Part shown: positions 6,336 through 45,657 of the stretch, piece after piece | Numbering within the stretch: position 1 is the stretch's first letter | Layout: each line of letters begins with the position of its first letter | NCBI GenBank assembly: GCA_951406725.2 | Contig: OX597823.1 | Location: forward strand, 113,894,001 to 113,958,000 | Direction: 5' to 3' | DNA length: 64,000 bases | DNA from: Octopus vulgaris | Taxonomy: Eukaryota | Program-made: the position numbers and the translations under genes | Notes under the pieces: generated by a model | Told to the model about the DNA's origin: nothing | Databases searched by the model: none | What the model saw: only the letters and a program-made list of their open reading frames with translations

Positions 6336-6648
6336 TGTGTGTGTGTGTACTTTATTTAAAAACAGCAGAAATATAACAAAATTGTTACTCAGAGTTTTAC
6401 GTTCCCGTAAAATAGATAATATTACTCTACCTCTGGTATTTGCCAGGGGAATTCTCATTAGTACATATATATATATATTAATAGCTATCGCCATACTAAT
6501 ATGGTAGTCTATAAATATAAGACTAAAGCTATCGCTGATTAGCTCCAAAAGGCCATCGCCTCTAGCTAGCTATATGACACACGAAACTGCGTCCATTACA
6601 ACCTTCGAACATGGGAGGTCAGCCGCTTCCCCTTGCTAGTCAGACATC

Positions 6649-6687
6649 TGCAAACATGTTTCAGGGTTGTTGCCCTTTATCAATGTA
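6649..6687 (-). ncRNA. Hammerhead-like motif, U3/A8 core variant (left-arm copy)
   Basis: Reverse complement reads taca-TTGATAA-AGGG caacaa CCCT-GAAA-CATG-TT-tgca. Confidence 0.5.
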
Positions 6688-6894
6688 TACACGAACAGAG
6701 AAACATACAGACACGGACAAATGAGCTTTTGTGTGTAAATATGTTTATGGATATATATGTAAACATCGCTGTCTCAGTTTCTCTATATCTCTCTCTAATT
6801 TAATTGTTTTCCATACTTATAGTTGAAAGAGTTTCAATGACAGAAACCGGTACTGAGATGTTTTTTATAAAATTATTTTAGTAATTTCTACCTT

Positions 6895-6936
<42 letters not shown>

Positions 6937-7510
6937 TCTCGCGTTTTCCTATGAATGAGCAAAAAAATTAATTTGTCATCCGTAGTTCATCAGTAGGATC
7001 GCTAAAACAATGGCATAGTTGTGTATATATATATATTAGTAGTTATAGCCATACTAATATGGTAGTCTATAAATATAAGACTAAAGCTGTTGCTGATTAG
7101 CTCCAAGAGGCCATCGTCTCTAGCTAACTATATGACACACGAACCTGCGTCAAATATATATATATATATATATGCACAAACTATGTCATTGATTTACGAT
7201 CTTACTGATGAACTACGCATGACAAGTTAATTTTTTTGCTCATTCATAGGAAAACGCGAGAATATATATATATATGTGTGTGTGTGTATATATATATACA
7301 GTCAAGGTCGAAATGACTAAAATAATTTTATAAAAAACATCTCAGTACCGGTTTCTGTCATTGAAACTCTTTCAACTATAAGTATGGATAACAATTAAAT
7401 TAGAGAGAGATAGAGAGAAACTGAGACAGCGATGTTTACATATATATCCATAAACATATTTACACACAAAAGCTCTTTTGTCAGTGTCTGTATGTTTCTC
7501 TGTTCGTGTA

Positions 7511-7549
7511 TACATTGATAAAGGGCAACAACCCTGAAACATGTATGCA
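7511..7549 (+). ncRNA. Hammerhead-like motif, U3/A8 core variant (right-arm copy)
   Basis: taca-TTGATAA-AGGG caacaa CCCT-GAAA-CATG-TA-tgca. Palindromic stem III ACATGT; stem I is weak (one mismatch in 4 bp). Confidence 0.55.
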
Positions 7550-34301: not shown

Positions 34302-34337
<36 letters not shown>

Positions 34338-34349
34338 AATGTATGTATG

Positions 34350-34380
<31 letters not shown>

Positions 34381-34413
34381 ATATGTATATATATATATAT
34401 GTATATATGTATG

Positions 34414-34464
<51 letters not shown>

Positions 34465-34468
<4 letters not shown>

Positions 34469-35359
34469 TTGTATACTGTCAATCTAACAAGAACGTGACA
34501 GTAGGGGGTACACCACCGTTATATAGCCCTAGGAGGCATCGAACGCCTCCTGACAGCTTCGACACATTTTATCCTGTGTCCTTATATACACATACGAAGG
34601 GGAGACAAACACCCCCAACTGCCGGAACTGCATCTAGGGACACCGTGTTTCAGGATCATTGTCCTTCATCGGCCTAGAGTAGCAGACACCGGTCAGCTGG
34701 CGATGTCTGTCTCGACTTCGTATCTGTATATATCTATAGTCAGTGAAGTCTATTCACTGATTATCAAAATAAGAAATATTGAGTTTCTAAATCTCTCGTA
34801 GAGAGGTGTACGGTGGTGGAGCGATATAATGGTTGTATACTGTCAATCTAACAAGAACGTGACAGTAGGGGGTACACCACCGTTATATAGCCCTAGGAGG
34901 CATCGAACGCCTCCTGACAGCTTCGACACATTTTATCCCCCTACTGTCACGTTCTTGTTAGATTGACAGTATACAACCATTATATCGCTCCACCACCGTA
35001 CGAGAGATTTAGAAACTCAATATTTCTTATTTTGATAATCAGTGAATAGACTTCACTGACTATAGATATATACATATACGAAGTCGAGACAGACATCGCC
35101 ATGACCGGTCTGCTACTCTAGATGAAGGACAATGATCCTGGTGTCCCTAGATGCAGTTCCGGCAGTTGGAGGTGTTTGTCTCCCCTTCGTATGGGGATAA
35201 AATGTGTCGAAGCTGTCAGGAGGCGTTCGATGCCTCCTAGGGCTATATAACGGTGGTGTACCCCCTACTGTCACGTTCTTGTTAGATTGACAGTATACAA
35301 CCATTATATCGCTCCACCACCGTACACCTCTCTACGAGAGATTTAGAAACTCAATATTT

Positions 35360-35364
<5 letters not shown>
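34465..35364. mobile_element. Retrozyme-like / non-autonomous PLE-like element: 364-nt unit, about 1.3 direct plus about 1.3 inverted copies, in (TA)n
   Basis: atggttgtatactgtc occurs at 34465 and 34829 (period 364). Orientation flips at about 34937-34938 on a cc microhomology and the inverted run continues to 35364. The unit is non-coding, hairpin-rich and carries a hammerhead. Confidence 0.8.
34633..34678 (-). ncRNA. Type-I hammerhead ribozyme, U4C core variant, with greatly extended stem I
   Basis: Reverse complement tctagg-CCGATGA-AGGA caatga TCCT-GAAA-CA cgg TG-TC-cctaga. Predicted cut between 34639 and 34638. Confidence 0.8.
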
Positions 35365-35449
<85 letters not shown>

Positions 35450-35863
35450 TGTATATATATAGAGAGAGAGAGAGAATGGGAGAGATAGATAGAGAGACAA
35501 TTAGGCAGATAAATAGATATACATACATATATTTGTGTATATACATATACACGCACAAAATACATACATGCATAGATGTGTATGAATATAGATGTATACA
35601 TTCAGAAATGAAAGATCAAGCATAATATCTGGATAATGTACATCTATGTTCATTTCCTGTTTAAAACAACTTGACGAGAAACTTTAGATAGCCTACAACG
35701 CTATGCCTCACTCACTCTCTTTTCTCTCTCTCTCTCTCTCACTCGCATTCTCTTCCTCTCTTTCCTTCTCCCTCTCTCTATATGTGTGTGTTACATGTAC
35801 ATATGTGTGTTTGTGTATGTATATTGGCGAATACATGTATGCCTGTATATATGTGCGTATGCA

Positions 35864-40957: not shown

Positions 40958-41243
40958 CACTCTACAAACTAATGGTCAGTGCTCCGTTTTCCTGACTTGA
41001 GAAACCAATACGAGTTTTATATATATATTTTATATAATTATGTGCATATATGTGCGTGTGTGTTTGGGTAGAGATCTCAATCCATAGCTATCTTTCTCTT
41101 CATCTATCTTTCTGACTCTCTATGTATCTCTTTCTTTCTCTCTATACATATATATATATATATATATCAAAATGTGACCTCGTATGTACCGTTGGCGATA
41201 TTTTTCCTCTGTCTTCCCTTCTCTGGATCTTTCCTTCTCCTAT

Positions 41244-41278
41244 GTTTCCGACGAAGAGCTCCGCTCGAAATGTTGAAC
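41244..41278 (+). ncRNA. Minimal hammerhead motif, U4C variant
   Basis: gttt-CCGACGA-a-GAGC tcc GCTC-GAAA-tg-TT-gaac, in an element (41165-41380) homologous to 5220-5430. Confidence 0.65.
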
Positions 41279-41374
41279 CCTCCTTCTTTCCTTCTTTCCT
41301 GAGCATCCAATAATACTATATTTGTTCCACGTCCTCGCGTTGTTGTGTTTTTTTGTGTATTTTCTTGTTTGGAT

Positions 41375-41459
<85 letters not shown>

Positions 41460-44367: not shown

Positions 44368-45657
44368 CGAGGGGCGTTCAATAAGTAATGCCCCTGACCC
44401 ACTTCCCATAGCAGTAGAGCAACGAAACTTGGCACAGTTATTAGTCATTTTCTACATAGGAACCACTCAGAGTTAAGCATTTCTCCCATCGTTTGATGCG
44501 GCTCTGGAGACTGTTTTTGTAGAAGAACCCAGCTTGGTCCTCCAACCTCAACGTGACTTCAGAAATCAAGGCTGCATCATCTGGGAAACGCTTTCCTTTC
44601 AAAAACAACTTCATGATTGGGAAGTGGTGAAAATCAGAGGGTTCAAGGTCAGGAAAGTAGGGGGGATGGGGAGGAGTTCATAGCCATACGCCTGTGCTTC
44701 TGATCTGGCGACAAGCGAGTTGTGGACCGGAGCGTTGTCCTGCAGGAGGAGGATGCCTTTGCTAATCTTGCCCCGCCTCTTGATTTTGATAACTTCTCTT
44801 AATTTCCTCAAAAGTGAAGCATAATAGGCTCCTGCAATTGTGGTACCCTTTGCCAGGAAATCTGTCATCACTACTCCGTCCTGGTCCCAGAAGACTGTGA
44901 GCATGACCTTGCCAGCGGAGGGCTGCACCCTTGCCTTCTTTGGAGGGGGTGAGTCACGGTGCTTCCACTGCATTGACTGGGCTTTGGTCTCTGGATCATC
45001 GTGATGGACCCAGGTTTCATCCTGTGTAATCAGTCTTTTGAAAAATTTTGACTCATCTTCTTGGCACATCTCCAAATTCACCCTCGAGCACTCGACGCGT
45101 TCTTGCTTCTGGAAAGGCGTGAGCAACCTGGGAATCCATCTGGCAGACACCTTTTGCATATGCAAATGGCCATGAATGATAGTTTCCACAGACCCGGTAC
45201 TAATCTTGACCTCATGGGCTATTTGGCGAATAATTATGCGTCGATCTTCCAAAATGGCAGCCTCAACTTGACGGACAGATGCCTCATCAATGGCAGAAGG
45301 GGCGACCAGATCTGGGAACTGTTTCCACAGAGTTCCGACCATGTTTGAATTCACGATGCCAGCGTTTTACAAGGTCATATGATGGGGCATAATCACCATA
45401 AGTTACTTTCATTTCATCAAAAGTCTCCCGTGGTGTGCGTCCTTTCAAATACAAAAACCGGATCACTGCTCGACACTCAACAGGCTCCATTTCACACTTG
45501 ACTCGGTTCAAACACCTGTAAATCAGAAACCACAATTAATTCAGAGCTGTAATTTGCCACTTACTCTATAGATATATAAATAATTGCACATGCAAAGTTT
45601 CAGCTAGATCAACCAACTGCAAGTGGGTCAAAGGCATTACTTATTGAACGTCCCTCG
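44368..45657 (-). mobile_element. Full-length mariner (DD34D, irritans/Himar1-like), 1290 bp
   Basis: 37-bp TIRs CGAGGGGCGTTCAATAAGTAATGCCCCTGACCCACTT / CGAGGGACGTTCAATAAGTAATGCCTTTGACCCACTT (3 mismatches), TA on both sides. Confidence 0.97.
44441..45490 (-). pseudogene. mariner transposase, about 350 aa, two frameshifts, no in-frame stops seen
   Basis: MEPVECRAVIRFL..PRSGRP / SAID..WIPRLL..ITQDETWVH..KVMLTVFWD..LLQDNAPVH..LLP / HPPYFPDLEPSDF..KRWEKC..SYVEND*. 34 residues between the 2nd and 3rd D. Confidence 0.93.

Follow-up and report, generated by a model that had tools for sequence, protein, structure and literature searches.

The closest described relatives of the element analysed here are the non-LTR retrozymes of metazoans, whose non-coding units of 150-450 bp (350-390 bp in mussel) have a GC content under 50% and a type I hammerhead ribozyme, and for which Penelope-like elements (PLEs) have been proposed as helpers (Cervera and de la Pena 2020, PMC7229834). 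Li, Clavereau and Pollet (bioRxiv 10.64898/2026.07.22.740005) presented retrozymes as non-autonomous PLEs on the basis of co-occurrence and pLTR similarity in 35 genomes; the accessible part of this preprint includes no mollusc and leaves the mechanism open. PLEs form partial tandems with an inverted, 5'-truncated copy and a 30-40-bp tail, usually at one end, in (TA)n targets (Craig et al. 2021). The protein of an anole Poseidon PLE, a predicted dimer, cuts both strands at AT-rich DNA, and two internal RNA sites at which the reverse transcriptase (RT) starts bound the tail (Frangieh et al. 2024, PMC11167929). The non-autonomous PLEs of Chlamys such as MRC1 (Craig et al. 2021) are also short non-coding dependants with tandem copies, but their 3' ends are similar to those of their helper, and their clade is reported to be without hammerheads; the octopus family described below differs from them in both respects.

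The locus studied lies in a window of 64,000 nucleotides (the whole stretch of DNA that was analysed) from Octopus vulgaris (assembly GCA_951406725.2, contig OX597823.1, positions 113,894,001 to 113,958,000, forward strand); its features are given in Table 1. The element is like the metazoan non-LTR retrozymes of PMC7229834 in unit size, GC content, type I hammerhead, pairing, tandem copies and co-existing PLEs, and unlike them in that the family consists mostly of dispersed two-arm head-to-head insertions of one to two units instead of tandem arrays and has variant cores (U4C; U3:A8 in sister families). It shares with EN+ PLEs (Craig et al. 2021; PMC11167929) the one-sided tail, the inverted 5'-truncated copy, the (TA)n targets and two putative start sites downstream of a hammerhead, while its unit has no ORF, its tail is 55 nt long (46 and about 59 nt in sister families) rather than 30-40 bp, and its hammerhead stands on a long stem rather than being of the minimal form.

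Table 1. Features of the octopus locus, with positions numbered in the window
Feature	Position	Strand	Remarks
Left target tract, (TA)n/(TATG)	34302..34464		
Arm 1, ~480 nt (1.3 units)	34460..34938	-	RNA sense minus; fixed site E1 (34460-34465) at the 3' end; 5' truncated at 34938
Non-coding unit of 364 nt, subfamily A	34465..34828	-	
Conserved hairpin module between ribozyme and E1	34465..34582	-	Structure with both-side changes across five families; parts 34561-34580, 34528-34555, 34474-34503 and a strand at ~34512-34520 pairing with the tail
Long imperfect stem prolonging stem I	34583..34732	-	34583-34638 with 34673-34732; predicted fold, outer part covaries in A/B
Type I hammerhead (predicted)	34633..34678	-	Motif scan, stems, covariation
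Head-to-head junction of two 5'-truncated arms	34937..34938		2-nt overlap
Arm 2, 428 nt, inverted	34937..35364	+	Fixed site E2 (35364) at the 3' end
55-nt 'tail' between E1 and E2	35310..35364	+	On the end of arm 2 only
Right target tract, (TA)n	35365..35461		

An earlier, sequence-only reading of this locus had claimed about 1.3 direct copies of a 364-nt unit followed by about 1.3 inverted copies, and this layout held: the non-coding unit (34465-34828; GC 45%; longest ATG ORF of 34 aa on the ribozyme, or minus, strand and of 70 aa on the other) is followed by an exact repeat of 110 nt (34829-34938) and then by the inverted copy (34937-35364), with (TA)n tracts on both sides. Arm 2 has six deletions, 40 nt in total, which removed parts of the hammerhead core and therefore destroyed its hammerhead. 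The locus is left with one intact hammerhead and thus cannot release a monomer by itself. Two consecutive units with complete hammerheads, the 'active' class of Li et al., were found in the family and not at the window locus. Long inverted pairs in which one arm has small deletions and few substitutions were seen here (six deletions in 34937-35364) and at locus L180 (12 deletions); the deletions differ between the two loci, and such arms reflect either error-prone joining or consensus error.

The minus-strand hammerhead proposed by that reading at 34633-34678 was found again by its motif and stems. It has a stem I of 6 bp, the core CCGAUGA (U4C) in place of CUGAUGA, which the earlier reading had overlooked, a stem II of 4 bp, GAAA and a short self-complementary stem III, and its cut is predicted between 34639 and 34638. 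When both strands of the window were scanned for the motif, the plus strand of the unit gave no hammerhead. The core CCGAUGA is kept in 74 of the 78 motifs counted (duplicates not fully excluded), and stem III is self-complementary in all five families described below and perfectly so in families C, D and E, as in dimeric hammerheads (Cervera 2014). The U4C core lowers hammerhead activity in vitro and is tolerated by a viroid (Perreault 2011); because of this core and the short stem III, cleavage in vitro is uncertain. A comparison with Rfam gave no match in 34465-35364 even at an E value of 10 and nothing at gathering score in the window, and the homologous family D scored 32.2 bits (E 8.6e-5) with Hammerhead_1, below the cut-off of 34. 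Hammerhead cores missed by Rfam occur naturally in these predicted ribozymes.

For the ribozyme strand the circular fold of the unit had an energy of -145.4 kcal/mol (z -10.0), and for the opposite strand one of -137.0 kcal/mol (z -7.4), each compared with 100 dinucleotide shuffles, which agrees with the heavy base-pairing noted earlier. The z-scores of monomer folds of the four sister families ranged from -5.0 to -10.4, and the ribozyme strand was favoured by energy in 5/5 families and by z-score in 4/5. The long stem and five local hairpins of the sequence-only reading folded as it had stated; the pairing of 34811-34818 was also recovered, with its partner at 34875-34882, one position away from the proposed 34876-34883. 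Three wobbles in the long stem and one in a hairpin, G-U on the ribozyme strand only, had been taken as a pointer to selection at the RNA level. The G-U pair of the GGAGG hairpin is present on the ribozyme strand and the long stem has four of them, but the G-U count alone leaves the strand unfixed because the opposite-strand fold of the whole unit has more such pairs (8) than the ribozyme-strand fold (6). The active hammerhead fold costs 5.4 kcal/mol above the best fold. A string in the loop of the GGAGG hairpin that resembles the tRNA B box is not conserved in B, C or D and was dropped.

Covariation was counted by laying the structure from subfamily A on nine copies of the five families. Changes on both sides were found in 33 of 104 pairs, compared with 19 in shuffles (0/500 as high) and 9-14 for slid partners, the structure being drawn from one row and the controls ignoring relatedness. 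Stem I covaried at 6/6 pairs in these nine copies, and the core pair C3:G8 was replaced by U3:A8 in families C and E. The outer long stem fitted and aligned poorly in the distant families, with 56-70% paired. When 19 copies of A and B were compared, 94.5% of cells paired and 9 pairs changed on both sides, a count reached by 85 of 500 shuffles. Three of the polymorphic sites within A are paired, and each of them yields G-U on the ribozyme strand, an outcome with a chance probability of 1 in 8. The covariation bears out the earlier claim of selection on RNA structure: the same predicted fold is kept by compensatory changes in related families of 353-362 nt with 48-85% identity. The helices around E1 and E2 are also kept across families, and one of them pairs the body of the unit with its tail. 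Together with the conserved hairpin module, these helices may recruit the RT and form a candidate RT-binding element.

The search of the 2.8-Gb assembly with the unit gave at least 136 matches, on most large contigs, when the best 40 of 2197 first-look candidates were scored. The genome contains 107 exact occurrences of a 40-base pattern of subfamily A, which therefore has on the order of a hundred loci. The 86 distinct A loci that we compared showed 0.55% divergence from the column majority, four common polymorphic sites being left out; subfamily A is a young dispersed family, spread over most chromosomes. Most other candidates in the genome probably belong to an older subfamily B, which is 82-85% alike to A. 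Profile searches gave 2724 candidates for family C (362 nt) and 2361 for family D (353 nt), and one copy was examined of family E, a relative of C; C, D and E are 48-57% alike to A. Two complete hammerheads in tandem were present in 5 of 55 hammerhead-bearing loci. An array of about six family D units (L192 1270-3394), 98.5% alike to the reference unit, is a candidate source locus.

Comparison of the insertion ends of the 86 A loci showed that the 3' end of every arm, in ribozyme sense, points outward. These loci have 154 arm ends, of which 69 are at E1, 60 at E2, 55 nt beyond E1 in ribozyme sense, and 25 elsewhere, so that 129/154 are canonical, while the 5' (inner) ends are scattered over the unit. 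Sixty loci are head-to-head (53 simple and 7 complex) and 26 are single or other. Two canonical ends are present in 43 of the 53 simple two-arm loci, the other 10 having at least one non-canonical end, and all 43 combine one E1 with one E2; none has E1+E1 or E2+E2. Families C and D have end pairs of their own, separated by ~59 and 46 nt, and in neither family did a two-armed locus repeat a canonical end (25 loci per family, including some duplicates). Among the first 40 loci, 22 of 30 junctions showed overlaps of 1-6 nt. A tail on one side together with an inverted 5'-truncated copy is the signature of PLEs.

The sequence-only reading had taken permuted end points, inside (TA)n at different positions of the unit, as the sign of a circle. 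This was not supported: the inner 5' ends do vary, but the outer ends are the two fixed sites throughout the family and lie mostly in (TA)n; most canonical ends adjoin (AT)n. Target duplications are unreadable in (TA)n. The one clear insertion outside such a tract (L007) has a duplication of 8-10 bp, and it is the one locus with a duplication of more than 4 bp, as is expected of non-LTR retrozymes. No LTR layout was seen in the loci. A hint of 5' ends at the ribozyme cut in 40 loci (6/72, positions 185-192) was lost in the 86 loci, where 9/154 ends fell in positions 181-192, which is not above neighbouring stretches.

Judged from its sequence and insertion structure, the element is very probably a non-autonomous PLE of the non-LTR retrozyme kind, in which a minus-strand RNA longer than the cut monomer would serve as template and would be mobilised in trans by the RT/GIY-YIG protein of a PLE. 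A non-autonomous, multi-copy hammerhead retroelement of this kind had been proposed, and the 86 loci, none joined to a PLE ORF, agree with it; PLE mobilisation, then worded as 'perhaps', is supported by the end rule and the head-to-head layout. The minus-strand RNA would fold into a hammerhead on the long stem and the conserved hairpin module, and the PLE protein, supplied in trans, would bind this module and cut both strands of an AT-rich target. Each DNA end would then start one cDNA, the two internal RNA sites used being separated by 55 nt; the cDNAs would stop at variable lengths and be joined via a few bases of microhomology, leaving a head-to-head insertion with the tail on one side. In a cut monomer, both ends would stay attached to each other through the long stem (34583-34732). 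The preprint of Li et al. comes to the same conclusion on origin and mobilisation; the octopus evidence is insertion structure, without pLTR similarity among the sampled PLEs. The mobilisation of retrozymes, proposed so far, and the origin of PLE tails and inverted copies are both made testable by this family.

The genome contains 6136 GIY-YIG candidates, 150 of which were scored, and many intact 781-aa frames with RT and GIY-YIG, in which a Cys motif before GIY-YIG points to a PLE of the Neptune/Nematis type as described by Craig et al. 2021. The ends of an autonomous PLE family with 781-aa frames lie in (TA)n at two sites separated by 40 nt. Core variants are common to retrozymes and PLEs, with CCGA in two PLE families and UUGANAA in two others. 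Two chimeras were found. At the first (L159/L177, G000:C17, about 47711500-47714100), a family D arm is fused head-to-head to a PLE ORF arm that terminates in a minimal hammerhead and TA, the end of the D arm being non-canonical. At the second (window 6473-6900), a family C arm meets, head-to-head, a PLE-like 3' end that has a minimal hammerhead, and the PLE-like stretch is 77% alike to the PLE end of L159/L177. Rearrangement is possible for both because they are single cases, with a non-canonical D end in one and an 88% palindrome in the other. Both flanks of L159/L177 run on into one repeat in inverted orientation, and window 6473-6900 and 7033-7549 form the 88% palindrome with a second C arm.

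Several results weigh against the PLE retrozyme reading. BLAST and profile comparisons gave no DNA match of the unit to PLEs among the GIY-YIG loci and four or more PLE families (a small sample of the 6136 candidates), unlike the Xenopus retrozymes, which match pLTRs; matches to the unit near GIY-YIG loci, considered as helper evidence, were adjoining retrozyme copies. Both chimeras belong to sister families and are single loci, one of them in a rearranged palindrome. The lowered in vitro activity of U4C, the +5.4 kcal/mol of the active fold and the lack of 5' ends gathered at the cut site count against efficient cleavage, the hammerhead is not detected by Rfam, tandem hammerheads are present in only 5/55 loci, and in the anole PLE the ribozyme was dispensable for insertion in vitro (PMC11167929).

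As to the template, 72 of 126 arms with canonical ends run through the predicted cut site, 4 of them through two such sites, so that the template is not usually a cut linear monomer. The two arms of an insertion shared alleles at 57/59 polymorphic sites and tandem units at 24/24, compared with 55% between loci, the tandem test resting on 7 minor-allele sites in 3 loci. Shared alleles are in keeping with a single source RNA that passed through a bottleneck of unit length, for example a circle; gene conversion or template jumping would leave the same pattern. From these patterns we incline, with modest confidence, to a ligated unit-length circle as template, in preference to an uncut multimer. 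Pieces of the unit were found in contigs of four independent public runs, three guessed to be RNA and one of unknown kind; their variants mostly match subfamily B, and the contigs carry no ends, strand or level. None of the listed public runs containing the unit is listed as RNA.

A credible alternative, which we hold to be somewhat short of probable, keeps the same PLE mobilisation and does without a circle: the template would be transcribed from a few long source loci and stay an uncut multimer, and the hammerhead would be slow, protein-dependent or concerned only with processing read-through RNA. The U4C core of 74/78 motifs, the short stem III and the lack of a 5'-end pile-up at the cut agree with it, as do arms long enough to act as masters (A arms reach 857 nt and D arms 2.1 kb), the anole assay in which the ribozyme was not needed (PMC11167929), and the cleavage in vitro of only 1/9 Xenopus elements (bioRxiv 10.64898/2026.07.22.740005). 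However, the linked minor alleles in both tandem units would then need a unit-length bottleneck, template jumping or conversion, the core and stems are kept by compensation across families about 50% alike, and the retrozymes of mussel, coral and axolotl give circles (PMC7229834).

It is improbable that the insertions are solo pseudo-LTRs, in which case an autonomous PLE would have the unit as its terminal repeat and the insertions would be its truncated 3' ends. Most PLE copies are 5'-truncated, with hammerheads in their repeats, and the PLE families here were only sampled, but the arms run upstream into more unit copies and not into an ORF. The unit is multi-copy and none of the 86 loci is joined to a PLE ORF, the one nearby ORF (L015) lying beyond a TA tract and another element, so that this reading is largely refuted for subfamily A.

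The term 'viroid-like' used in the sequence-only reading was not upheld. In viroids both polarities carry ribozymes and there is no DNA stage (PMC8781251). The unit has its size, high pairing and ribozyme class in common with hammerhead viroids and viroid-like RNAs, as an endogenised replicon with RNA-to-RNA copying and occasional reverse transcription would have; this origin is nevertheless very unlikely, since the hammerhead is of one polarity, the fold is branched and not rod-like, and there are five diverged genomic families with PLE-type ends and many integrated loci. A DNA-level foldback, satellite or assembly artefact, suggested by long inverted repeats in microsatellites and two loci with deletion-riddled arms, is scarcely credible given the fixed one-of-each ends, the varied junctions, the dispersal over most chromosomes, the compensated ribozyme and the unit pieces in four independent public runs.

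Returning to the PLE retrozyme reading, we put forward a more specific version of it, which is tentative and on balance doubtful. The five cephalopod retrozyme families would keep an RT-recruiting module by structure only, without sequence likeness to the helper; a PLE dimer would prime twice on one circular RNA, at E1 and at E2; and occasional mixed loading of retrozyme RNA and PLE mRNA would yield the chimeric arms. If this were true, the unit would be the minimal natural substrate that accounts for the tails and inverted copies of PLEs, and it would for the first time connect ribozyme-made circles directly with PLE insertion. The value of the family lies in its strict end rule, the covarying module around both putative start sites, the retrozyme-PLE chimeras and a genome with intact PLE ORFs.

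The sequence-only reading knew of no description in cephalopods, and our searches, which covered the literature, found none, repeat libraries (Repbase, Dfam) and supplements lying outside their scope and possibly holding such units unnamed. The searchable text of PMC7229834 contains no cephalopod and no 'inverted', the accessible part of a 2026 octopus repeat annotation makes no mention of ribozymes, and a squid genome paper counted 235 Rfam hammerheads without analysis. As far as these literature searches reach, retrozymes appear to be extended to cephalopods.

Other elements were observed in the window and at the loci compared. In a young PLE (L061 930-6172) the 781-aa RT and GIY-YIG frame is preceded by a long reading region with an open frame of 359 aa, and the minimal hammerhead in the repeat of this PLE has U3:A8. 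In the window, about 41160-41380 (+) carries a minimal hammerhead (motif at 41248) with a CCGACGA core, in the terminal repeat of a C-rich PLE (L278) whose family is of high copy number, with 14496 candidates for its endonuclease. At L178 4860-7200 three elements (an A arm, a family E unit and a C-rich PLE) adjoin one another around TA tracts, a shared target hot spot. We take the 251-aa fragment encoded at window 44611-45366 (-) to be a mariner-like transposase, and the element from about 36355 (+) is presumably a tRNA-type SINE. Further distinct hammerhead-like motifs in the flanks of L010, L107, L042/L062, L144, L153 and L035 suggest more unannotated families.
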